Shown here: piece after piece, positions 8,476-26,470 of the stretch
Layout of the letters: the number at the start of each line of letters is the position of its first letter
Numbering within the stretch: the first letter of the stretch is position 1
Notes under the pieces: model-generated
Seen by the model: only the letters and a program-made list of their open reading frames with translations
The model's database searches: none
Told to the model about the DNA's origin: nothing
Position numbers and translations under genes: made by a program
DNA from: Thermoanaerobaculia bacterium
GTDB lineage: Bacteria; Acidobacteriota; Thermoanaerobaculia; UBA5066
NCBI GenBank assembly: GCA_038214715.1
Contig: JBBQRP010000001.1
Location: forward strand, 131,646-195,645
Length of the DNA: 64,000 bases
Direction of reading: 5' to 3'

Positions 8476-8964
8476 TCATCGCTGTGCGCCTTCCGGAAAC
8501 TGCACGAAAGTCCCGTCCACGAGGATGATGTCGGCGTTGAACGTCGTCGTCGCTCCGCCCGCGGGACTCGAATCCGGAATCCCGTCCGCTCCGGCCGAGC
8601 GCAGGGCGTAGTCCCTCTTCAAGGCGCTACCTCCGTAGAGATAGAACGAACTCCAGCCGTCGACGAGGGGAACGAGCCGGATGTAGGTGGGCTCGAGGGA
8701 GCCGGAGATCGCCCCGATCGGGGCCGTCGGAAGCGAAAGCCCGGACGGAAACGCGATGGCGGCCGAGGCCGGGTAGTTGTTCTGGTCCGCCGCATACGCC
8801 TCGACAGCCGTCGAGATCGTCTTCATGTCGGCCATCGTCCGCTTCTGTTTCGCGCGCTGGATCGCGTTGATCATGTTCACGATCGAGATCGCGACGATGA
8901 TTCCGATGATCGCGACCACGATCAGAAGCTCGATGAGCGTGAATCCCTTTCGACTTCTCGGCAT
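8476..8964 (-). CDS. Type IVa pilin, paralog 2
   Basis: MPRSRKG|FTLIELLIVVAIIGIIVAISIVNMINAIQRAKQKRTMADM. The N-terminal ~50 aa are near-identical to pilA and the C-terminus has diverged. SD GAGGGAG. The remaining 8965..10797 of the 773-aa track ORF is an artefact. Confidence 0.9.
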   Translation of the reverse strand: MPRSRKGFTLIELLIVVAIIGIIVAISIVNMINAIQRAKQKRTMADMKTISTAVEAYAADQNNYPASAAIAFPSGLSLPTAPIGAISGSLEPTYIRLVPLVDGWSSFYLYGGSALKRDYALRSAGADGIPDSSPAGGATTTFNADIILVDGTFVQFPEGAQR

Positions 8965-8997
8965 GCTCCCTCGTGACCCTGATTCCGAGGAACGGTA

Positions 8998-9012
8998 CTC
9001 AAGAAACGTGCC
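8998..9012 (-). promoter_or_regulatory. Candidate sigma54-type promoter for pilin paralog 2, with the same imperfect -12
   Basis: Minus-strand sequence is aGGCACgtttcTTGAg, ~37 nt upstream of the ATG. It parallels the pilA element. Confidence 0.3.
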
Positions 9013-9054
9013 TCGTCCGGGCGGGTCCGCGCGGGCCTTTAGAATGGGTCCAAC

Positions 9055-10590
9055 GTGATCCCCCGTCCGCCCTTCGCCTCGGCCCTCACTCTGGAGCAGG
9101 AACTCGCCGAATTCGAGATCCTGAAGCCGAGGCTCGCCGAAGTCTGGGATTCGATCTCCGGACGGGACGATCAGCCCCACACGTCGGTCGTCGTGCCCTC
9201 GCTCACTCTCGATCAGGCGGAGATGAGGAAGCTCGACGGCGCGAGCTTCTACGAGGAGAGGCTCCTCTTCCTCCTCATCCGCCTGCGCAACCCGCGGGCG
9301 CGCGTGGTGTTCGTGACGTCCCAGCCCGTTCACCCCCTCGTCCTCGAGTACTACTTCCAGCTCCTCGTCGGAATTCCCGCGAGCCACGCGCGCAGCCGGC
9401 TCACGCTGCTCTGCGCCCACGACGCCTCGCCCCGCTCGCTCACCGAAAAGATTCTCGAGCGGCCGCGCCTCATCGAGCGGATCCGGCAGGGGATCACCGA
9501 CCGGACGCGCGCGTATCTGACCGTCTTCAACTCGACGCCTCTCGAGCGGAAGCTCGCCGTCCTCCTCGGCATCCCTCTGAACGGCGTCGACCCCGCCCTC
9601 AACTCGAACGGGACGAAGTCCGGAAGCCGCCGGATCTTCCGCGATGCCGGCGTCGCGATGCCGGACGGATTCGAGGACCTGAGGGACGACGCGGACATCG
9701 AGGGCGCGCTCGTGGCGCTGAAGGAGCGGAAACCACATCTCCGCCGCGCCGTCGTGAAGCTGAACGACAGCTTCTCGGGCGAGGGAAACGCCGTGTTCCG
9801 TTATCCCGAAACCGGTCGCCTCGAAGAGGCCGTGCATGCGACGCTCCCGAACGTCGAGTTCTCGGTCCCCTGGGAGACCTGGGAGGACTACCACGGGAAG
9901 TTCCGGCGCATGGGCGGGATCGTGGAGGAATTCATCGAGGCTCCCTGCAAGATGTCGCCGAGCGTCCAGCTCCGCAGCGACCCTCACGGCAACGTCATCC
10001 CGATCTCGACCCACGACCAGCTCCTCGGCGGACCGAGCGGGCAGGTCTTCCTGGGCTGCCTCTTCCCGGCCGACGACGAGTACCGGATGCTCATCCACGA
10101 CGCCGCGATGCGCATCGGATCGGTCCTTGCGGGCAAGGGCGTCGTGAGCCGGTTCGCCGTGGACTTCCTCGTGACCCGCGAGGACTCCGCCTCTCCGTGG
10201 AAGGCGTGGGCCCTCGAGATCAACCTCCGGATGGGAGGCACGACGCACCCGTACCTCGCGCTGCAGTTCCTCACGGGCGGCCAGCTCGACGCGGCGACGG
10301 GTCTTTTCCACTCGCCTCGCGGATCGCCGAAGTTCTACCGCGCGACCGACAATCTCCGTTCCGACACGCTCCGCGGGCTCATTCCGGAGGACCTGATCGA
10401 GATCGTGACGATCAATTCCCTCCACTACAGCCACAACTCCGAGTCGGGCGTGCTGTTCCATCTCGTCGGCGCGCTCTCCGAGTACGGCAAGCTCGGACTG
10501 ACGGCCATCGGGAACACCCGCGAGGAGGTCGAGGCAATCTACGGCAAGACCCTGCGGATTCTCGATCACGAGGCCGGCAGGGGCCACTGA
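9055..10590 (+). CDS. ATP-grasp-fold protein of unknown specificity (putative carboxylate-amine / peptide ligase)
   Basis: 511 aa. C-terminal ATP-grasp hallmark WALEINLRMGG (E-x-N-x-R). A preceding Gly-rich and K/R-containing region is consistent with an ATP-grasp core. Ends 32 nt upstream of malQ on the same strand. Confidence 0.5.
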   Translation: MIPRPPFASALTLEQELAEFEILKPRLAEVWDSISGRDDQPHTSVVVPSLTLDQAEMRKLDGASFYEERLLFLLIRLRNPRARVVFVTSQPVHPLVLEYYFQLLVGIPASHARSRLTLLCAHDASPRSLTEKILERPRLIERIRQGITDRTRAYLTVFNSTPLERKLAVLLGIPLNGVDPALNSNGTKSGSRRIFRDAGVAMPDGFEDLRDDADIEGALVALKERKPHLRRAVVKLNDSFSGEGNAVFRYPETGRLEEAVHATLPNVEFSVPWETWEDYHGKFRRMGGIVEEFIEAPCKMSPSVQLRSDPHGNVIPISTHDQLLGGPSGQVFLGCLFPADDEYRMLIHDAAMRIGSVLAGKGVVSRFAVDFLVTREDSASPWKAWALEINLRMGGTTHPYLALQFLTGGQLDAATGLFHSPRGSPKFYRATDNLRSDTLRGLIPEDLIEIVTINSLHYSHNSESGVLFHLVGALSEYGKLGLTAIGNTREEVEAIYGKTLRILDHEAGRGH

Positions 10591-10622
10591 GCGGCGCTCC
10601 GGGCGCGGGATAGCATTCCCGG

Positions 10623-12143
10623 ATGGTCCGTACCGCCCGCCAAGCCGGCGTGCTCCTGCACCCGACCTCGCTGCCTTCCCAGTTCGGCGTCGGCGATCTC
10701 GGCCCGGCCGCCGACGCGTTCCTCGACTGGGCGTCCGAGGCGGGACTCGCGCTCTGGCAAGTCCTGCCGGCGGGCCCGACGGGCCCGCACCATTCACCCT
10801 ACGACGGCCTCTCCGCGTTCGCGGGAAACCCTCTCCTGATCTCTCCCGAGTGGCTCGTCGAGGAGGGCCTCCTTCCGGCGGGAGCCCTCGACGGCGCCCC
10901 GGACTTTCCAGTGGGGCGCGTGGACTGGGAGCGCGTCCTTCCGTTCCGGCGGCGCCTTCTCGAAGAATCCTTTCGCCACGCGCGCTCCCTCGGCGCGAAG
11001 ATCGAAGGCGAGATCGCGCGCTTCGCGGGGGCGCCTTCGCAGGCCGCGTGGCTTCCGGATTGGGTGCTCTTCGCGGCCCTGCGTGAAAAGAACGAATCCC
11101 GCGCCTTCATGGAATGGGATCCGGCGCTCGCGCTCCGCGAGGAAACCGCCCTCGCGGCGGCACGGGTCGATCTCGCCGAGGCGATCGCGTTCCACACGTA
11201 CACGCAGTTCCTCTTCTTCCGACAGTGGCAGCGCGTGAAGGCCGCGGCGAACGCGCGCGGCATCTCCATACTCGGAGACGTACCCATTTACGTCGCCGGG
11301 GACAGCGCCGACGTCTGGGCTCACCGGCGGCTCTTCGCGCTCTCCGAGGACGGGCGGCCCACCGTCGTGGCCGGCGTTCCGCCCGACGACTTCAGCGCGG
11401 ATGGCCAGCGGTGGGGCCACCCCCTGTACCGGTGGGACGTCCTCGCCGAGGAGGGCTACGACTGGTGGATCGAGCGCATCCGGCTGAATCTCCGGCTCGC
11501 GGACGCCGTTCGGCTCGATCATTTCCGCGGATTCTCCACCTACTGGGAGGTGCCCGCGTCGGCGGCGACGGCCCGCGAGGGGCGGTGGGTGAACGGACCG
11601 GGGCTGATGCTCTTCATGGCCATCCAGCACGCGCTCGGCGACGTCGGCCTCGTGGCCGAGGACCTCGGCGTCCTCACGGACGACGTGAGGAGGCTCCTCG
11701 AGGTTCTCGGCCTCCCGGGCATGAAGGTCCTCCAGTTCGCCTTCGGCGAGCTCGACAGCGAACACCTTCCGCACCACCACGTTTCCAACAGCGTCGTCTA
11801 TACGGGCACACACGACAACGACACGACCCGCGCCTGGTTCGCGGCACTTCCCGAAGACGCGAGGGCGCGCTTTTGCGACTATCTCGGGACGCCCGGCGAG
11901 GACGCCGCCTGGGACCTCATCCGCGCGGCGTACGCGTCCGTAGCCGACCGCGCAGTCGTTCCGATGCAGGACATCCTCAATCTCGGCGCGGAAGGCCGGA
12001 TGAACGTGCCCGGCCGCACGGGCCAGAACTGGGACTGGCGCGCCGCGAAGGACGCGTTCTCGCCCGAGGTCGCGGGCCGCCTCCGGCGCCTCGCGACGCT
12101 GACGGGACGCGCGGCCTCTCCGGAGAGCGCTTCGAGGCCCTAG
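10623..12143 (+). CDS. malQ: 4-alpha-glucanotransferase (amylomaltase, GH77)
   Basis: N-terminal signature GVLLHPTSLPSQFGVGDLG, ~500 aa, with typical GH77 spacing of conserved Asp/Glu regions. Confidence 0.9.
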   Translation: MVRTARQAGVLLHPTSLPSQFGVGDLGPAADAFLDWASEAGLALWQVLPAGPTGPHHSPYDGLSAFAGNPLLISPEWLVEEGLLPAGALDGAPDFPVGRVDWERVLPFRRRLLEESFRHARSLGAKIEGEIARFAGAPSQAAWLPDWVLFAALREKNESRAFMEWDPALALREETALAAARVDLAEAIAFHTYTQFLFFRQWQRVKAAANARGISILGDVPIYVAGDSADVWAHRRLFALSEDGRPTVVAGVPPDDFSADGQRWGHPLYRWDVLAEEGYDWWIERIRLNLRLADAVRLDHFRGFSTYWEVPASAATAREGRWVNGPGLMLFMAIQHALGDVGLVAEDLGVLTDDVRRLLEVLGLPGMKVLQFAFGELDSEHLPHHHVSNSVVYTGTHDNDTTRAWFAALPEDARARFCDYLGTPGEDAAWDLIRAAYASVADRAVVPMQDILNLGAEGRMNVPGRTGQNWDWRAAKDAFSPEVAGRLRRLATLTGRAASPESASRP

Positions 12144-12233: not shown

Positions 12234-13973
12234 TCAGGGGGACGGGGGTCGCTTCTCCATCGCGATGTACGCGCCGTCGCCCGTCCTCTGACCCGGGCCC
12301 GCACCATCGTTGATGATGCCGTAAGCTGCCCACGAGTGTCCAAACACATCCTTTGGGTGATTGATCTTCACCCACCCGTTCCGGACTCCCTTGAGGGCGA
12401 GGATGTTGTTGACCTGCTTCCACTCGAACGGGTTCACCGTGACGATCTCCGGCGTTCCCGCCGGCGCGCCGCCGGCGTCCCCGTCGTAGACCTGCAGCTG
12501 AAGCTCGGACGGCCCATCCAGCGTCCGGGCGTCGTCGGTGAAGTTTAAGACCGCCACGTTGGAGCGGTTGTTCTCGTCGGCCCGGAGTCCGAAGATGTAG
12601 CCGTCGTCGCCGAAGGCGGCCTGGTTCGCCACGAGCTCGGGAGTGAAGAGCCCGAACTGGCCCCCCTGCGCCGCGGGAGACTGCGATGCGGTTCTGGCGC
12701 CGGCGTACGTCTCGCGGACGTCGGAGTCCGGGATCTCGACGTAGACGCTTCCGACGAAGCTGCCGGAGCCCGCCGGGGCGAGGGACGCGCCGTTGTCGCG
12801 AAGGAACTGAATGGCATTGGGGATGATCCGTTGCTCCGCCGGGCCGAGAGTCAAGGCAACGACTCCCGACCCGCCGGCCGGATTTACCGACTCGTGGTAG
12901 TTCAGGCGGAAGACCTGCGAGTGGTTTGCGCTGTTGGAGAGGAGCAGCTCGCTGCGAAACGCCCCGGCTTCCACGATGACGGGGATGTTCACAAAGCCGC
13001 CGACGGTGAAGTCACCGCTCACCGGGTTGATATACGAACCGTCGTTGGTGATGTTGTCGTTGATGACCCCATAGGCACGCCCGGGGCAGCCGTCCGCCCC
13101 GAGACACGGGGCAGTCACCTCGACCCAGCCGTTCGAGAAGCCGCTCTCGCCGAAGGAGACCTGCGCCCAACCGAGGGGACCCACGGTGAGCGCCTCGCGA
13201 AGCACCTTCGACTGCCCGTCGCCGCTTCCGGAGAACGCGATGATATTGAAGTCTACCGGGGTCGACGGGCTCGAATTGAACACGGCCACGTTCGAACGGT
13301 CGGTCGCGTTCGCGCGGAGTCCGAAGATCCTGGGAATGCCCGGGGAGACCTGCTCCGTCGGATTCAGGCCGCGATATGCCAGGCCGGCGCTCCCGACGGG
13401 TTGGGGCGCGCCGGTCGCGGTCGTCGTTCGGGCGGTCGCGGAGATCAGCTCCTGAGGCGAGACGCCCTCGAAGGTGACGAGGAGCGTGCCCCCCTGCTGG
13501 CCCGAGCTTCCGGCCGGGATCGGCAGCCCCTTCCCACGGAGGTAGGCGAGGACGTCGGGGATGACGAGCTGCCGTCCCCGCACGAGCGTGTCGGGGACGG
13601 TGCCGGAGCCGGTCCCGAGCGAGGCGGTGTAGCGGAGCGTGACACCCACGGTGTTCGGCTCCGCGTTCGTCAGGGATAGCTCCGTCGTGAAGTGGGCAGT
13701 GCCGGAGAAGACATCCAGCACGATGGGCACGAGGCGAGAGGTAGTGTCGGCGACGAGAGGATGGTTCAGGAGGATCAGGCACGCGAGGAGCGCGAGTGCG
13801 AGGAACCGGCTACGCCGAAAGGCCGAGAAGCTTCCTGATCCGCCCGGGATCTGGGTCGCCGAGTCCGCAGCGAGGGGCGTGCCCGCCGAGGCGTTTCGAG
13901 CCGCCGGAATCGCGACGGCACGAAACGCGAGAGGGAACGGGCGGATCGAACAGACGGTCGCGCGGATACGCAT
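12234..13973 (-). CDS. Secreted protein made of two tandem copies of an unrecognised ~230-aa domain. It is a paralog of the C-terminal module of the 19913..23425 protein.
   Basis: Signal-like region FRRSRFLALALLACLILLNHPLVA (possibly Tat-type, with a long n-region). Internal repeats share ARTTTAT/ARTASQS, GLRA(N/D)..(D/N)RSNVAV(F/L)N, GWV(E/K)(V/I), AYG(V/I)IND. The start at ATG 13973 is the only in-frame start upstream and is uncertain. Confidence 0.75.
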   Translation of the reverse strand: MRIRATVCSIRPFPLAFRAVAIPAARNASAGTPLAADSATQIPGGSGSFSAFRRSRFLALALLACLILLNHPLVADTTSRLVPIVLDVFSGTAHFTTELSLTNAEPNTVGVTLRYTASLGTGSGTVPDTLVRGRQLVIPDVLAYLRGKGLPIPAGSSGQQGGTLLVTFEGVSPQELISATARTTTATGAPQPVGSAGLAYRGLNPTEQVSPGIPRIFGLRANATDRSNVAVFNSSPSTPVDFNIIAFSGSGDGQSKVLREALTVGPLGWAQVSFGESGFSNGWVEVTAPCLGADGCPGRAYGVINDNITNDGSYINPVSGDFTVGGFVNIPVIVEAGAFRSELLLSNSANHSQVFRLNYHESVNPAGGSGVVALTLGPAEQRIIPNAIQFLRDNGASLAPAGSGSFVGSVYVEIPDSDVRETYAGARTASQSPAAQGGQFGLFTPELVANQAAFGDDGYIFGLRADENNRSNVAVLNFTDDARTLDGPSELQLQVYDGDAGGAPAGTPEIVTVNPFEWKQVNNILALKGVRNGWVKINHPKDVFGHSWAAYGIINDGAGPGQRTGDGAYIAMEKRPPSP

Positions 13974-14207
13974 CACGGGATCTCCTCGCTGAAGCGGCTC
14001 GCTCGTCCGCGGCCGGGCATTTGAAGGTGAGGTCACAGCCCCAAGCGGGATCCGTGGAGCCTGAAGGGATCGTACCCTTACACAAAGACTCAATCTCAAT
14101 TATTCCCGCTCCTGTAGGGGGCGTTCTCCGCCGCGGCGCACCGCGAGCTTCTCGGGCCGGAATGAAGCTCTGACGCTCGCGCACGGAATTCCCGCCGGGT
14201 CGACTCC

Positions 14208-19912: not shown

Positions 19913-22900
19913 ATGCGCATGTCGTTCAGACGCAGGCTGATCAGCACGGCCGTCGCCGCGACCTTGCCACTCTTTCTCGCGGGCCCGGGATGCCCGCCGC
20001 CGGCAGCCGACCCCTGCTCGAACGCAAGTGGAGATCTTCCCTGCGGCCAGGAGACCGGGGACGTAGCCGTCGTCTACCACGACCCGGACGATCCCGACAA
20101 TCCGGATGGCGTCGCCTTCAATGGGTCGAACCCGGGCTCCGAGTTCTACGTTTCGACGGGTGAAGACGGGAATGGGGAGGTCGAAGTAGTAATCACCGAC
20201 GTGGAGGATTTCGGCGTGGACGCCGTCCTCAAGGCATTCACGTCCTTCGGGACCGGGTTTGTCGCGGTCGGCGGCAAGATCGAATTCGTCGACCTGCGAG
20301 ACGGCTCCCACAGGGAACTGTCCTGCCCGGAGACCGGCTTCGGGAACCAGGCGACGTGCGTCAGTCCCGTCGACGATGACATGTGTTTCGTCGGGGTCCA
20401 GAGCACGACAGGCATTCCAACGGCAGGCGGTTACCTGTGCAGCGTGAGCGCCGGCGTCTGCTCGAGCGTGAACGGTCTCGCCGCCAGCGGCGGGTTCGGC
20501 GATGGGTCGACTTCCTGCACGACCGCCGACGCCGCGCCGACGGGGAATATCCGCACCGCCCTCGTCTTGCATCAGGTTCTCCTTGCCGGGACCGCAGCGA
20601 ACGGCGTCTACAAGAGCACGGACGCGGGCCGAAACTGGACGCGCATCACGGCGGGCCTCCCGGGCTTTCTGGGCGTGTATCGGTTCGCCCGCTCCGGAAA
20701 TTCGTTCGTGATCGGCACGGGCTCGGGGATCTACCGGAGCACCGATCAAGGCTCGTCCTGGACAAAAATCACGTCCGGCGTGCCCTCGGTCGCCGTCCCC
20801 GACGTCCGCGCCGCCGGCGGGGCTCTCTACGCGGTCGTCAGCGCGATCACACCGAACGTGTACAAGAGCACGGACGGGGGCGCGTCGTGGCAACCCACGG
20901 GCCCAGGCATCTCGGCGACTCGCGTGTATGGTCTGACATCGAATCGCAGAGCCATCTTCGCCGCCACGAACGGAGGGGTCTTCAAGAGCAAGGACGCCGG
21001 GGCATCGTGGCAGCTCTGGGGGAAGGGTATCGCGGCCGCGAGCATCACCCGGATGTACGTCTCGGGCAGCACGATCTTCGCGGGCGCGTTCGGCTCGAAG
21101 AGCGGCGTGAGCCGCTCGACCGATTTCGGCCAGACGTGGACGCCCTCCACCGGGCCGATCGCGTACAAGATCATCCGGGCTCTCTGGGCGTCGGGCAATA
21201 CGGTGCTCGCAGCCGGAGAGGGCGGGTACTTCAAGAGCACCGACAACGGCGTCAGCTTCACCTCGACGGTCCCCGTCGGGCTGCCGACGAACGGCACGTA
21301 CGTCTACGCCTTCACGCCGGTCGGCGCGACGCTCCTCGCCACGATGAGCACAGGCGGCGTATACAGGAGCACGAACGGCGGCGACTCGTGGGCGCCCTCC
21401 AGCTCCGGCCTCCCGCCCGACGTGAATGCTTTCTCGATGGCCGTGAGCGGAAGCACGGTGATCCTGGGATCGAGGAACCTCGTCTATCGGAGCGTCGACG
21501 GCGGCGCGACGTGGACCGCGGCGGGCGCACCCGCGCCTTCACAGACCTTCCTCGTTTACACGCTCCTCTATGACGGGAGCACCCTTTACGCCGGAACCTA
21601 TGGGACGGGCGGCACGGCGACACAAGGTCTCTTCCGCAGCAACGACAACGGCTCCACGTGGACCCGGGTCTCAAACGGCATTCCCTCCAACACGGATGTC
21701 TGGTCCCTCGCGGCCGCGGAGGGACGTCTCTTCGCGGGGACGCGGAACGGCCTCTTCGTTTCGAACGACGGCGGGGGCTCGTGGCAGAGCTTCGGCGGCC
21801 GTCTCGCGAAGCACTCAATCTTCGCCCTTGCGGCGGGGCCGTCAGGCGTCTCCGCCGTCGATTCGCCCGGCGACAGAGGCGCAGCCGAGCTCGGCGCCTC
21901 CGCGACCCGCCTTTACGTCGGGACCGACAGCTCGGGCATCTTCAAGCCCCTCGTTTCGACGCGAACCCAGCGCCTCGTGCCGATCGTTCTCGACGTCGAC
22001 AACGGGAGCGGCGCGCACTTCACGACCGAACTCGATCTCACGAACCGGGGCACGACGCCGGCGGCCCTCACATACCTCTACACGGGCTCGATCGGCTCGG
22101 GCTCGGGCTCGGGAAGTGAGGCACTGGCACCCGGCCAGCAGCTCGTCGTGGCCGATGCGATTTCCTACCTGCGCGGGAAGGGAGTCCCGATTCCCTCGGG
22201 CAACGTCGGCGGAACGCTCCTCGTCACGTTCGACGGCGTTTCGGACCCGAGCGTCGCCTCGGTGACCGCGCGGACCACCACCGCCACGTCCGCGCCCCAG
22301 CCCGCGGGCGCCGCAGGCCTTGCGTACGCGGCTCTCGATCCCAACACCGAGGGTGCCCGGGGTCTTCTTTCACTCTACGGATTGCGTTCGAATTCCCAGG
22401 ATCGCTCGAATGTCGCCGTCTTCAACACGTCCGGGCAGCCGGTCACCCTCAGGGTCACCGCCTCGAACGGAAACGGGACGGGTGCGACCGCCGTCATCGA
22501 TGCGTCCACGACGCTTCCGCCCTACGGATGGAAGCAGTACACGCGGATCCTCGAGGGTCCGGCCTATTCGACCGGCTGGGTCAGCGTCGAGCGATTGTCG
22601 GGCGTGGGCGCTTTCGGCGCATACGGCGTGATCAACGACAACGGAACGAGCGACGGGTCGTACGTCCTGCCGGTGGGGGGCTCCGGCCTGGGAGACTATT
22701 TGAACGTCCCGGTTCTCGTCGAAACGCCTTCGTTCGTGTCGGAGCTCGTCCTGACGAACGCGAGCGCGGTCGCGGCGACGTTCGCACTCACGTACGCCGA
22801 GTCGCTTGCGCCCGGGGGCGGAGTCGGCGGGACCGCGAGTATCGCCGTCCCGGCGAGAACCCAGCTCATTTTCCCCGGCGCCATCGCGGAGCTTCGCGGG

Positions 22901-23425
22901 CGCGGGGTGTCGATCGGCGCCGCCGGCGCGGCGAGTTACGCCGGCTCGCTCCACGTCGTCCCGACGGGCGCCCCCGTCGCGCAGCTCTTTGCGGGAGCCC
23001 GCACCGCTTCGCAGTCGCCCGCGGGAGGGCAATTCGGCCTGTTCACACCCGCGTTCTATCCGGGCTCGGAGGCGAACGGCTCGGCGTACGTCTACGGCTT
23101 GCGCGCCGACCCCACAAACCGGTCGAACGTCGCCGTCATCAACACCGCGCAAGGCTCGCCGGTCGGCCCGATCACGCTGCAGCTCCAGGCCTACGACGGT
23201 GATACGGGCGGAAATACTTCGGGCGCTGCGGACTCCGTGACGCTGCAGCCGGGTCAGTGGAGTCAGGTCTCCGGCTTCCTCGGAAACAAGGGCGTGAAAA
23301 ACGGCTGGGTCAAGATCACGCGGACGAGTGGCACGGCGCCATGGATCGCCTACGGCGTCGTGAACGACGGCGGCGGCCCGGGCCAGCGCACGGGCGACGG
23401 GGCCTACGTTCCCATGACGCGCTGA
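19913..23425 (+). CDS. Large secreted protein: signal peptide, Cys-rich N-terminal region, ~10 BNR/Asp-box repeats (beta-propeller), then a C-terminal tandemly duplicated unknown ~230-aa module
   Basis: S-x-D-x-G-x-(T/S)-W repeats (YKSTDAGRNWTRI, YRSTDQGSSWTKI, FRSNDNGSTWTRV and others). The C-terminal 21955..23425 is paralogous to 12234..13700 (RLVPIVLDV, ARTTTATSAPQP, GLRSNSQDRSNVAVFN, GARTASQSP.GGQFGLFTP, GLRADPTNRSNVAVIN, GWVKIT, AYGVVNDGGGPGQRTGDGAYVPM). Confidence 0.85.
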   Translation: MRMSFRRRLISTAVAATLPLFLAGPGCPPPAADPCSNASGDLPCGQETGDVAVVYHDPDDPDNPDGVAFNGSNPGSEFYVSTGEDGNGEVEVVITDVEDFGVDAVLKAFTSFGTGFVAVGGKIEFVDLRDGSHRELSCPETGFGNQATCVSPVDDDMCFVGVQSTTGIPTAGGYLCSVSAGVCSSVNGLAASGGFGDGSTSCTTADAAPTGNIRTALVLHQVLLAGTAANGVYKSTDAGRNWTRITAGLPGFLGVYRFARSGNSFVIGTGSGIYRSTDQGSSWTKITSGVPSVAVPDVRAAGGALYAVVSAITPNVYKSTDGGASWQPTGPGISATRVYGLTSNRRAIFAATNGGVFKSKDAGASWQLWGKGIAAASITRMYVSGSTIFAGAFGSKSGVSRSTDFGQTWTPSTGPIAYKIIRALWASGNTVLAAGEGGYFKSTDNGVSFTSTVPVGLPTNGTYVYAFTPVGATLLATMSTGGVYRSTNGGDSWAPSSSGLPPDVNAFSMAVSGSTVILGSRNLVYRSVDGGATWTAAGAPAPSQTFLVYTLLYDGSTLYAGTYGTGGTATQGLFRSNDNGSTWTRVSNGIPSNTDVWSLAAAEGRLFAGTRNGLFVSNDGGGSWQSFGGRLAKHSIFALAAGPSGVSAVDSPGDRGAAELGASATRLYVGTDSSGIFKPLVSTRTQRLVPIVLDVDNGSGAHFTTELDLTNRGTTPAALTYLYTGSIGSGSGSGSEALAPGQQLVVADAISYLRGKGVPIPSGNVGGTLLVTFDGVSDPSVASVTARTTTATSAPQPAGAAGLAYAALDPNTEGARGLLSLYGLRSNSQDRSNVAVFNTSGQPVTLRVTASNGNGTGATAVIDASTTLPPYGWKQYTRILEGPAYSTGWVSVERLSGVGAFGAYGVINDNGTSDGSYVLPVGGSGLGDYLNVPVLVETPSFVSELVLTNASAVAATFALTYAESLAPGGGVGGTASIAVPARTQLIFPGAIAELRGRGVSIGAAGAASYAGSLHVVPTGAPVAQLFAGARTASQSPAGGQFGLFTPAFYPGSEANGSAYVYGLRADPTNRSNVAVINTAQGSPVGPITLQLQAYDGDTGGNTSGAADSVTLQPGQWSQVSGFLGNKGVKNGWVKITRTSGTAPWIAYGVVNDGGGPGQRTGDGAYVPMTR

Positions 23426-23431
23426 GCCGGA

Positions 23432-23905
23432 TCAGTTCACGTTCGACATGACGACGCGGGATTCCGCGTACGTGACGCGCGACGCGATGCGGCGCTTCTT
23501 CACCGTCCTCGTCTCGAGGAGAACGGTGCGGCCCGCCGACAGGTCCTCCGGGACGGACGAGTCTTTTGCGAGACGGAATTTCACGAGGTGTCCCGCGGGC
23601 GTCTTCACCGTGATCGATCTCCCTTTCTCGTATCCCGTCACCGTGGACGCGGCCGGCCGCGAGAGCGAGACCGTCCCGCCCCGGGCGATCCCGGACTTCA
23701 GGTGCGCGTGCCCCGCGGCGGGCGAGGCGGCGAGCGGCGGCGCGGAGACCGTCGGCCCCTCCTCCTGCGGCGCCGCCGGGGCCGGAGCAGCCATCTCGAC
23801 CGGGGCAACAGGCGGACGGAAATTCTCCGCGCAGAGGGGCGCCGCGGCCATCGCCAGTACCGCCGCCGCGATCAGGAACACGAGCAGTCCCGACGGTTGC
23901 CGCAT
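23432..23905 (-). CDS. Small secreted protein: signal peptide, Ala/Pro-rich linker and a conserved C-terminal ~60-aa domain
   Basis: Signal peptide MRQPSGLLVFLIAAAVLAMAAA. The C-terminus EKGRSITVKTPAGHLVKFRLAKD..AGRTVLLE is homologous to the adjacent gene. Confidence 0.6.
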   Translation of the reverse strand: MRQPSGLLVFLIAAAVLAMAAAPLCAENFRPPVAPVEMAAPAPAAPQEEGPTVSAPPLAASPAAGHAHLKSGIARGGTVSLSRPAASTVTGYEKGRSITVKTPAGHLVKFRLAKDSSVPEDLSAGRTVLLETRTVKKRRIASRVTYAESRVVMSNVN

Positions 23906-23917
23906 CGGCCGCGTCCC

Positions 23918-24565
23918 TCAGCGGACCGGGGACTCTGCGGCGGAGAACTTGGATTTCCGCGGGGCTTTCGGCCGGCGAGCCTTCGTCACGCGGTCGGCGC
24001 TCATTCCGTTCGAGGGCGCGCGCAGGGGGATCCGCAGCACGACCTTGTCGCCCGCGGCCAGCCCGCCATAAACGAACGCGTCTTTCGCGAGCGCCACCGT
24101 GCGCTCGACTCCGGCCTTCTCGACGATCGTGACGGAGACTCCCTTCTCGAATCTCTTCACGGTTCCCCGCAAAGATAGATAAGCCGCCTTCACCTCCGCG
24201 GGACCCGTGGGTCCCGAGGGGGCCTGCGCGGCGGGCACCGCGATGCCGGGGCCCGCCGCCGGGGACGCTCCCGGCGTCGCGCCCGCCGCGGACGGAGTCG
24301 GCGCCGACGGATCCACGGCGCCCCGGTTCGTCCGCACGTACCCTTCCGAGTCCGTCGGCATCGAGCCGCTGGGCCTTGCGACGCCTTCCTTGTTCGGCTG
24401 GTCGGGCAGCGACGGCGCGACGACGTGTTCCTCGGCCGGCGACGGCGCGAGCGAGGGACGGTCTGGCGTCGGAGCCGGCGTCTGCGCCCGCGCGGGAGTG
24501 GCGACGGCCGCGGCGGCGGCGGCGGCGGCCGCGAATACCAGAACGGCGGCGCGGTACAACTTCAT
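23918..24565 (-). CDS. Small secreted protein, tandem paralog of 23432..23905
   Basis: Internal ATG 24565 gives MKLYRAAVLVFAAAAAAAAAVATPARA (signal peptide). C-terminal EKGVSVTIVEKAGVERTVALAKD..AGDKVVLR. The upstream part of the track ORF is an artefact. Confidence 0.6.
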   Translation of the reverse strand: MKLYRAAVLVFAAAAAAAAAVATPARAQTPAPTPDRPSLAPSPAEEHVVAPSLPDQPNKEGVARPSGSMPTDSEGYVRTNRGAVDPSAPTPSAAGATPGASPAAGPGIAVPAAQAPSGPTGPAEVKAAYLSLRGTVKRFEKGVSVTIVEKAGVERTVALAKDAFVYGGLAAGDKVVLRIPLRAPSNGMSADRVTKARRPKAPRKSKFSAAESPVR

Positions 24566-24742
24566 GTGCGAATTGTAGTCTTCGGCGCGCGTTCTGGTCA
24601 CTGCGTGGCACAGATCCCCTCGCGCCCGGGTCAGGGGTTCCTGAGCGAGAACGTCACGACGACGTTCAGCGCCACGGCGGATGCGCGCGCGCCGTTCAAA
24701 AGGGGTGCGCATCGGCGCAGTCGGTTCCCGGGGAGCCTCCGC

Positions 24743-26470
24743 TCAGATCGCTTCGTGCGAGATGGAGTCGCTGCTGATCGTGCACAGCGCTTCCCCCTGG
24801 ATCGGACCCTCCGCGACGGTGACGCAGTTTCGGCCGGCCTCCTTCGCTCGGTACAGCGCCGCGTCGGCGGCCCGGAGGAGAGCCGCGGCCCCCGGTGTCT
24901 GATGGGGTCCCGGTTCGTGAACGGCGAGCCCGATCGAGACCGTCGTCCCGCACTCGACGCCCGGAATGCGTATGTCCGCGACGGCCGCACGGGTCCTTTC
25001 GCAGCAGCGGTAGGCCTCTTCGCGCGAGATCTCCGGCAGAAGCAGGACGAACTCTTCCCCACCGAATCGCACGGCGAGGTCGGTCGCGCGCACGCACTCA
25101 CAAAGGCGCTCCCCCATCGCGATGAGCAGCCGGTCGCCCGCAAGATGCCCGAATCGGTCGTTGAAGTCCTTGAACCGGTCGAGATCCAGCACGGCGAGGG
25201 CGACCGCGCGTTTCGAGCGCCGGCTCCGGGCGAGCTCGAGCGCGATCCGGTCGAAGAGGCCGGTGCGATTTGGAAGGCCTGTCAGGGGGTCCGTGGCCGC
25301 GGCCGCGCGCAGGCGCGCCATCCGGTCCGCGACGACCGACAGGAACAGGACGGAGAACACGAGGAACGAGAGCCCGACGTATCGCGTCCTCACGCCCCAT
25401 GGAATGATCCCGAAGTCCTGTGTCATGTCGCGGAGAGCCGCGACGAAGATGCACCCGAACCCCACGAGAACGATCACCGCGTAGGGCGCCCGCCGGCGCA
25501 CCTTCCGGCCGAGAACCTGGATCACACGGACTCCGGACGCGATCACGGTCGCGTAGCAAAGCGGCAGGAGATGGTAGAGGTCGTCCACGCGCGGGAGCAC
25601 GAAGGCGACGACCATCCCGGCAAACTGGAGAGCGAGAAGGGCCCGGATCCAGCGCGGCAGCTTCAGGACGAAAAAATAGTGGAAGAAAAGGGTGAAGAGC
25701 ATGGACAGCGCGAACACGAGAGCGACGTTCGCGCGGAATATGAACGAGAGTGATACGCCGAACCGCGACCAGACCGAGAGCCACGAGACGACGTACGCGG
25801 CAACGCCCGCGGTCAGGAGGAAGAACAGCAGGAATTCACGCTGCCGGCGGTCCCTCAGGTAGACGAAGAGCGCGAAGAGTCCGAGCGAGAAGATGGCCGC
25901 CGCCACGAGGGCGAGCGGCGCCTCGAACATCGTGCGGTCCCAGCACGCTTCGGAAACCGTGTCGATTGCGGGAGCGGCGGTCAATCCTCCGCCGCGGGGG
26001 CCCGCGTTGAAGACGCGGATCGCGAGCACGTGTTCCCCCGGGACGATCGTGATCGCGGGCGGTAGCTCGTAAAGTCGCGCCTGAAGCGTCCCTTTGTCGT
26101 ACGCGGGAGGGAACGCGCCGGTGCCGCCCACTCTCACGCCGTCGAGAAACGTCTCGTCGACGTCGCGGATCTGGGAGCAGGTGAAGGCGAGCGAGTGCGC
26201 ACGTACCGCGGGCGACAGGGAGAACCGGAACCGGTACCAGGCGTAGCCGTGCGGGGCGACGCCGGCCTCCTGCCAGGATCCCGGGACCCGGATCGGACGG
26301 AAGGAAAGGGCGTCGAGGCCCGCGACTCCGCCCGGAGCGTCTCCGGTCGCGAACTCGGCAGCCGACGACAGGTCCGCGCGCAAGCCGTCCACGAGGAGCG
26401 GCGGGGAGCCCGCGCATAAGGGCAGCGAGGCGCCGAGCGCCAGCACGAGACTCCCAATGCACGCGCGCAT
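24743..26470 (-). CDS. Diguanylate cyclase with an N-terminal 7TMR-DISM sensor (extracellular DISMED2-like domain plus 7 TM) and a C-terminal GGDEF domain
   Basis: Signal peptide, a ~170-aa extracytoplasmic domain, seven hydrophobic helices, then RFGGEEFVLLLP (active GGEEF) with the rest of the GGDEF core. Confidence 0.9.
   Translation of the reverse strand: MRACIGSLVLALGASLPLCAGSPPLLVDGLRADLSSAAEFATGDAPGGVAGLDALSFRPIRVPGSWQEAGVAPHGYAWYRFRFSLSPAVRAHSLAFTCSQIRDVDETFLDGVRVGGTGAFPPAYDKGTLQARLYELPPAITIVPGEHVLAIRVFNAGPRGGGLTAAPAIDTVSEACWDRTMFEAPLALVAAAIFSLGLFALFVYLRDRRQREFLLFFLLTAGVAAYVVSWLSVWSRFGVSLSFIFRANVALVFALSMLFTLFFHYFFVLKLPRWIRALLALQFAGMVVAFVLPRVDDLYHLLPLCYATVIASGVRVIQVLGRKVRRRAPYAVIVLVGFGCIFVAALRDMTQDFGIIPWGVRTRYVGLSFLVFSVLFLSVVADRMARLRAAAATDPLTGLPNRTGLFDRIALELARSRRSKRAVALAVLDLDRFKDFNDRFGHLAGDRLLIAMGERLCECVRATDLAVRFGGEEFVLLLPEISREEAYRCCERTRAAVADIRIPGVECGTTVSIGLAVHEPGPHQTPGAAALLRAADAALYRAKEAGRNCVTVAEGPIQGEALCTISSDSISHEAI

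Follow-up and report, generated by a model that had tools for sequence, protein, structure and literature searches.

Several described families of beta-sandwich domains come close to the element reported here, a module of two tandem repeats carried by two secreted proteins, A and B, of a Thermoanaerobaculia bacterium (phylum Acidobacteriota). Both genes lie in the window, that is, the whole stretch of 64,000 nucleotides that was analysed (assembly GCA_038214715.1, contig JBBQRP010000001.1, positions 131,646 to 195,645 of the forward strand); position numbers below are those of the window. A small eight-stranded sandwich of two four-strand repeats, with a conserved Trp at the start of strand 1, characterizes the ASRT/ASRAH superfamily (ASRT, Anabaena sensory rhodopsin transducer). 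The Thermotoga protein TM1070 is one of its members, which are predicted sugar binders (PMC2739507). In the ASRAH domains a near-invariant Asn closes strand 2; their solo form (TM1070) is tetrameric and their extracellular forms are dyads or tetrads (PMC2739507). RbmA of Vibrio cholerae, a scaffold of the biofilm matrix, is a secreted and stand-alone protein like A, and its two tandem FnIII-type sandwiches have together about the size of one repeat of the module. The tandem carbohydrate-binding modules (CBM) CBM22-1/CBM22-2 and the SLH domains offer a precedent for duplicated modules placed at either end of diverse secreted enzymes, multivalent and non-catalytic. The C-terminal domain of the type IX secretion system (T9SS) of Bacteroidota is a lineage-specific beta-sandwich that ends many unrelated secreted proteins, dozens per genome. 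Finally, the strand–Asn–turn–strand pattern of the module (..VAVFN.S..PV.) resembles that of CARDB-type sandwiches, within the group E-set/CARDB/NPCBM_assoc (NEW3).

The module also departs from these systems. RbmA has no sequence similarity to it and, unlike the module, is not fused to other domains. The CBM tandems and SLH domains give neither a sequence match nor a structural match over a whole repeat, and the module is joined chiefly to propellers, Ig-like domains, proteases and lipase-like hydrolases, not to glycoside hydrolases. The T9SS domain has about 80 amino acids (aa) and is strictly C-terminal, whereas the module, at about 500 aa, occupies an N-terminal or internal position in about 20 per cent of proteins. 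The matches to NPCBM_assoc are far under gathering scores and are not recurrent in the family. The SHEshChhN signature of ASRT/ASRAH does not recur in the module, and no subdomain has a Trp conserved in at least 90 per cent of sequences in its first predicted strand.

A two-repeat module shared by proteins A and B

Proteins A and B share a presumably extracellular, previously unannotated module that consists of two homologous repeats of about 245 aa (table 1). A first-pass annotation of the window had proposed a tandemly duplicated domain of about 230 aa in protein A. The duplication was borne out, as the profiles of the two repeats, derived from 93 family members, match each other over 230 columns (hhalign probability 100%, E 6.5e-48); the length had to be revised to about 245 aa, with aligned spans of 238–257 aa among the four copies. 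The same annotation had placed the module at the end of protein B, behind a BNR propeller. Residues 113–616 of A, counted for this alignment from an upstream TTG at 14099, are 50% identical to residues 678–1170 of B (BLASTP, E 2e-118), and the propeller is backed by the Pfam families Sortilin-Vps10 (8e-20) and BNR (2e-13). Protein B also matches an F510_1955-type model of NCBIfam at 1.3e-41, which is under that model's cutoff. Repeat 1 of A and repeat 2 of B are 29% identical (BLASTP, E 3e-18). In the four-copy alignment, pairwise identity is 54% for A1/B1, 50% for A2/B2, 38% for B1/B2 and 31% for A1/A2. All of the motif blocks listed in the earlier annotation are present in this alignment, and the GPGQRTGDGAY insert is confined to repeat 2. 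A six-frame scan of the 64-kb window with a hidden Markov model (HMM) gave exactly four copies, the number first proposed, and no further one.

The searches support the view that the module belongs to no described family, whether in Pfam, NCBIfam, the PDB sequences or Foldseek comparisons with PDB and BFVD; the domain had also been left unassigned at first. Pfam and NCBIfam scans of protein A gave no match to the module at E≤1, and the same scans of the module of B gave nothing but one sub-threshold NPCBM_assoc match in repeat 1 (residues 839–875, E 0.031, 14.9 bits with the cutoff at 24.4). When 30 diverse members were scanned against Pfam at E≤10, no family was recurrent: NPCBM_assoc appeared in one member (E 0.018, below the gathering score) and the PL28 ulvan lyase in two, with very weak matches (E 0.1). 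The family profile matched none of 177,635 PDB sequences at E≤10, and the single subdomains a2 and b2 (defined below) gave no match to PDB sequences either. A known domain or structure covering a whole repeat was looked for, and in the Foldseek search against PDB no solved structure spans one, the template modelling (TM) score normalized to the query being at most 0.24. A precomputed match to PF25839 on some homologues, one of them consisting of the module only, was gone at E≤0.1 on rescanning and was dismissed as faint.

The module is a genuine large unannotated family, comparable to the domains of unknown function (DUF), and it is of a familiar kind, that of the accessory beta-sandwich modules found in secreted proteins of bacteria. 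An exhaustive profile search among 1.84 billion representatives, clustered at 50% identity, gave 2,822 clusters at E≤1e-3, of which 807 reach E≤1e-30, and the matches listed nearly all span the whole module. The sequence of protein A is identical to P0001, which comes from the NCBI portion of the searched collection. Taxonomy and gene neighbourhood were established for the best 80 of 174 stretches that encode relatives in GTDB species genomes. All 80 loci come from metagenome-assembled genomes (MAGs), and 78 carry the label Acidobacteriota, Thermoanaerobaculia or Holophagales; the remaining two, in MAGs labelled Acidimicrobiia and Acidithiobacillales, may be mis-binned. The family is nearly confined to uncultured Acidobacteriota, in agreement with the lineage specificity suggested in the first place. 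Several MAGs give from 3 to about 11 loci each.

Soils, sediments and wastewater are rich in Acidobacteriota; most members of the phylum are uncultured, and little is known of their surface biology. The module tags many diverse secreted enzymes and binding proteins of this phylum yet escapes current annotation. A family model with defined boundaries would improve the annotation of thousands of 'hypothetical' proteins and flag the Acidobacteriota exoproteome.

Predicted fold and conserved residues

The two-repeat module was modelled with AlphaFold2 on the basis of a 93-sequence alignment. The model of 503 aa has a mean predicted local distance difference test score (pLDDT) of 92.4 and a predicted TM score (pTM) of 0.91; for repeat 1 of A modelled alone, the values are 94.4 and 0.91. 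This repeat is predicted to be all-beta, as is the module save for one short helix per subdomain. The predicted fold is compact (pTM 0.91) and not of the beads-on-a-string type. From the pattern of strands and the dips in pLDDT, we infer that each repeat would be composed of two beta-sandwich subdomains, a and b, which makes four putative sandwiches per module. Subdomain a would have about 125 aa and 8–9 strands, and subdomain b about 105–125 aa and 8 strands.

The second strand of each putative subdomain ends in a conserved Asn that is followed by a tight turn: FTTELSLTN in a1 (N27, 99%), DRSNVAVFN in b1 (N157, 78%), FRSELLLSN in a2 (N271, 98%) and NRSNVAVLN in b2 (N401, 73%). Comparison of the a and b profiles with hhalign gave weak yet in-register matches, the best between a2 and b2 (P 1.2e-4, probability 55%). 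Because these matches, though weak, are always in register, the module may be an ancient fourfold repeat; at the level of the profiles, the homology of a and b is suggestive and no proof.

In Foldseek searches against PDB, the whole module was matched by generic multi-sandwich proteins with TM scores of 0.08–0.19 on the query. The matches in BFVD were equally generic. Over the Foldseek searches of the module and of repeat 1, the top matches include macroglobulin domains, transglutaminase C-terminal barrels, Fabs, pilins and phage tail proteins. Repeat 1 alone retrieved transglutaminase C-terminal barrels, RbmA, Fabs and the CBM22 tandem, with root-mean-square deviations (rmsd) of 17–20 Å and a best query TM of 0.24. 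RbmA is among the best of these matches (E 1e-3 to 5e-3, probability up to 0.66), but its TM score is only 0.18–0.24 and its rmsd about 19–20 Å, so that the arrangement of its domains is unlike that of the repeat. The CBM22 tandem matches with an E of 9e-3 and a probability of 0.60.

The only PDB match with a Foldseek probability of 1.00 is TM1070 (1nc7), and it is local, involving one subdomain of the module. In the whole-module search, 1nc7_B and 1nc7_D gave TM scores of 0.71 and 0.65 on the 116-aa target, with an rmsd of 3.4–4.0 Å and an E of 0.023–0.041. The four strand-2 Asn residues of the module (73–99%) recall the near-invariant Asn of the ASRAH domains, if the two are assumed to be equivalent. 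The PDB sequence search gave no match to 1NC7 or 2II7. We take the predicted resemblance to ASRT/TM1070 as a lead only, because it lacks sequence support and the match does not recur for repeat 1.

The conserved polar and aromatic positions are E22, N27, R70, R106 and T107 in subdomain a, and D149, R150, N152, W193, Q195, W207, Y225, N229, T233 and D235 in subdomain b, with equivalents in repeat 2. Charged and polar residues such as R150, Q195, D235, E259, E266 and R351 are invariant across architecturally different paralogues that are 40–50% identical.

Possible roles of the module

The position of the module was compared in 244 proteins. The module ends 154 of them, directly follows the signal peptide at the N-terminus of 40, stands alone in 26 and lies inside 9; the other 15 are fragments. 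As a rule it is thus located at one end of the mature protein. There are signal-peptide-like N-termini in 172 of 229 proteins, as judged by a crude hydrophobicity test. The non-enzyme partners include propellers (Kelch, NHL/SGL/SBBP, BNR/Sortilin and Vgb_lyase-type) and the domains PKD, TIG, CARDB, DUF11, BACON, He_PIG and TSP3. The enzyme partners are Peptidase_S8, alpha/beta hydrolases of the S9/S15 and PGAP1/LCAT types, PhoX and FGE-sulfatase. The stand-alone relatives of A are 79–91% identical to it across MAGs, a degree of conservation which suggests that the module works on its own.

We tentatively propose, with less than even confidence and partly by analogy, that the module is a bivalent glycan-binding unit by which exoproteins are kept on the cell surface or in the matrix. 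It would be non-catalytic, with one candidate site per repeat formed by the conserved polar and aromatic residues, and the glycan that it recognizes would be lineage-specific and belong to the cell envelope or the extracellular matrix. Enzymes and binding proteins exported by the Sec pathway would thereby be held at the surface of the producer or in its biofilm. Protein A and other stand-alone forms would be lectin-like matrix or scaffold proteins, for which RbmA may be the functional analogue. A non-catalytic role in binding or retention is argued for by the conservation, compactness and duplication of an exported module that has promiscuous partners, occurs also alone and is found in one phylum.

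The location of the module at the extreme C-terminus of 154 of the 229 proteins could also point to a sorting or secretion domain comparable to that of T9SS, which would be read by a dedicated outer-membrane export or attachment machine and would mark the whole exoproteome. Such a function would fit the sharply set end of the proteins, located exactly 5 residues past the motif GDG[AS][YFW] in 82 of the 198 that have it, as well as the many unrelated cargo domains and the restriction to one lineage with many paralogues per genome. We nevertheless consider it unlikely. In the same 229 proteins the module is N-terminal in 40, with other domains after it, and internal in 9, and these cases, together with the stand-alone ones, speak against a tag that serves C-terminal sorting only. 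Its length of about 500 aa exceeds that of known sorting domains several-fold, its cargo-free forms are well conserved, no NCBIfam sorting-domain model matches it, and no conserved machinery gene is found as a neighbour at the 80 loci or in two long-contig contexts.

There is a further reading, for which we see only a slim chance: the four covalently linked ASRT-like sandwiches would be the docking handle of a sorting or cell-surface display system specific to Acidobacteriota, similar in role to the T9SS C-terminal domain or to PEP-CTERM/exosortase. If true, the module would define the displayed exoproteome of Thermoanaerobaculia- or Holophagales-type bacteria. That outcome would be notable; otherwise the family is useful, moderately interesting to specialists and unsurprising. 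Either a glycan tether or a display system would explain how degradative enzymes stay at the cell surface, and the module could serve as a display or affinity tag.

The best Foldseek matches are generic tandem beta-sandwich arrays and the majority of the conserved residues are in strands, which would also suit an inert stalk or spacer of Ig-like sandwiches that projects or stabilizes the functional domains and has no ligand. This seems improbable, as spacer repeats usually vary in number whereas the module has exactly two repeats in 241 of the 244 proteins, and as paralogues of differing architecture have kept their identity and their invariant residues. The existence of conserved stand-alone proteins is likewise difficult to reconcile with a stalk. 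The copy number of two, the invariant residues in both repeats and the compact predicted shape speak for a specific ligand and not for a passive spacer.

The first-pass annotation had suggested an extracellular module for binding or catalysis. An accessory, extracellular character would fit the signal peptides and the diversity of partners, whereas a catalytic function is unlikely. An unrecognized enzyme, for example a beta-sandwich hydrolase or lyase with the other domains as its accessories, might be expected from the invariant Asp, Glu, Arg, Asn and Tyr residues, from the stand-alone forms and from the faint PL28 matches mentioned above. Two features argue against catalysis: the two repeats have kept identical motifs, as is usual for binding modules but not for one active site, and the module is fused, in the manner of an accessory, to bona fide enzymes (S8, alpha/beta hydrolases, PhoX). 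Neither its sequence nor its fold, moreover, matches a catalytic family significantly, and we judge this possibility to be very unlikely.

For the glycan-binding reading itself, a link to carbohydrates, first suggested by the propeller partner, is weakly indicated by analogy, through the local TM1070 match and the resemblance to RbmA and the CBM22 tandem. Several observations weigh against it. Most of the highly conserved residues are within predicted strands and could be purely structural, and the four-sandwich layout, like any binding groove, is deduced from secondary structure alone. The TM1070 match has an E of 0.023, covers a single subdomain and falls outside the top 50 for repeat 1 alone; the Pfam ASRT model (DUF1362) matches none of the 30 members at E≤10. 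Carbohydrate-active enzymes are not over-represented among the partner domains. No conserved neighbour gene, glycosyltransferase or other, was found in two long-contig contexts or by clustering of the flanking open reading frames (ORFs) of the 80 loci. Finally, export beyond the periplasm is assumed.

Coordinates, signal peptides and neighbouring genes

The features of proteins A and B and the neighbouring genes discussed below are located in table 1.

Table 1. Positions in the window of proteins A and B, their parts and selected neighbouring genes.
Feature	Coordinates	Strand	Basis
Protein A, 579 aa: signal peptide and stand-alone two-repeat module	12234..13973	-	ORF list; stop codon 12234..12236
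N-terminal 75 aa of A: ~52-aa n-region, then FRRSRFLALALLACLILLNHPLVA	13749..13973	-	read from sequence
Repeat 1 of A, module residues 1-245	13011..13745	-	HMM domain 119-364
Putative subdomain a1 of A	13356..13745	-	strand pattern and pLDDT dip at 131-140
Putative subdomain b1 of A	13011..13355	-	strand pattern and pLDDT dip at 131-140
Repeat 2 of A, module residues 246-503, ends in GPGQRTGDGAYIAM	12237..13010	-	HMM domain 365-621
Putative subdomain a2 of A	12621..13010	-	strand pattern
Putative subdomain b2 of A	12237..12620	-	strand pattern
Protein B, 1170 aa: signal peptide, Cys-rich region, BNR/Sortilin-type beta-propeller, C-terminal two-repeat module	19913..23425	+	
Cys-rich region of B, residues ~27-215	19991..20560	+	
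BNR/Asp-box beta-propeller of B, about residues 220-660	20570..21892	+	Pfam stretches within residues 226-626
Repeat 1 of B, residues 684-921	21962..22675	+	four-copy alignment; HMM E 3e-100
Repeat 2 of B, residues 922-1170, ends in GPGQRTGDGAYVPMTR	22676..23422	+	four-copy alignment; HMM E 6e-118
Pseudopilin, C-terminal end of long ORF 8476..10797	~8476..8960	-	N_methyl 9e-9, T2SSG 5e-8
Outer-membrane barrel, 984 aa	16139..19093	+	CarboxypepD_reg 5.5e-19, OMP_b-brl_4 1.7e-126
First small ORF downstream of B	23432..23905	-	
Second small ORF downstream of B	23918..24712	-	
7TMR-DISM sensor with GGDEF diguanylate cyclase	24743..26470	-	GGDEF 8e-43

The N-terminus of A is probably a Sec-type signal peptide with cleavage near the VA/DT junction. 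Its n-region of about 52 aa is probably genuine in this genome, because the sole start before the hydrophobic core is the ATG at 13973 (with a GTG adjacent at 13976 and no other ATG, GTG or TTG), which has a GAGGAG Shine–Dalgarno sequence 8 nt upstream. A shorter start was ruled out, there being no ATG, GTG or TTG between 13973 and the domain. Such a length is unusual, as had been remarked: in 11 close relatives of A (79–91% identical) the signal peptides have 25–42 aa, and the N-termini are unconserved, with no conserved twin arginine. The motif RRSRFL, initially read as a possible signal for twin-arginine translocation (Tat), did not withstand comparison, since it has two residues from RR to FL against one in the S/T-R-R-x-F-L-K consensus. 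In the tested segment, FRRSRFLALALLACLILL, the spacing is wrong for Tat and the h-region is strongly hydrophobic, where a Tat signal would have a moderately hydrophobic one. Tat export of A is not supported, and Sec is the default reading of the sequence.

In protein B, the Cys-rich region between the signal peptide and the propeller has no Pfam match. The protein is possibly a lipoprotein anchored via Cys27, which follows ..FLAGPG; the lipobox would be atypical.

Some relatives have additional C-terminal features. In P0071 and P0102, a hydrophobic helix and a basic cluster come straight after the module (..LLTLIASGLVAVVLVGRRSS.. and ..MTILLAILLVSLLVVFFRTKR, respectively). By their sequence these tails look like a membrane anchor or a signal of the sortase/exosortase type, which would set the module beside the membrane and speaks for the proposed retention. 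In P0079, P0104 and their relatives, where the module is N-terminal, there is a recurrent C-terminal domain of about 275 aa (..IGYGHTSHGSQ..VVVWSWCGQADTGD..FVYMTGH..). The C-terminal tails of proteins with an N-terminal module (P0079, P0036, P0010, P0025 and P0115 types) gave no Pfam match, and the 275-aa domain may be a second unannotated, possibly catalytic, domain.

A second paralogue of the module, as in this window, is the sole recurrent neighbour among the 80 loci, located within 4 kb in 8 of them. Tandem or near-tandem paralogues are found in other MAGs at loci L014, L019, L037, L072, L076 and L082; L056 and L072 overlap on one contig. The genes between A and B code for a GNAT acetyltransferase, a Ser/Thr kinase, an outer-membrane barrel and an RluA-type pseudouridine synthase, and are unrelated to the module. 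The barrel is similar to TonB-dependent receptors. Its adjacency to the module genes is probably coincidental, because it is not conserved at homologous loci.

Just downstream of B, on the opposite strand, two adjacent small ORFs without Pfam matches share a C-terminal motif of about 43 aa, TV..(Y/F)EKG.S(I/V)T...AG....LAKD..V...L.AG..V.L (44% identity, E 1e-5), and may represent a small paralogous family. The N-terminus of the first is signal-peptide-like. A pseudopilin of the type II secretion or type IV pilin-like type is encoded about 3 kb from A. Near the genes of the secreted proteins there is also a 7TMR-DISM sensor with a GGDEF diguanylate cyclase domain; proteins of this 7TMR-DISM/GGDEF type typically act in surface or biofilm regulation.

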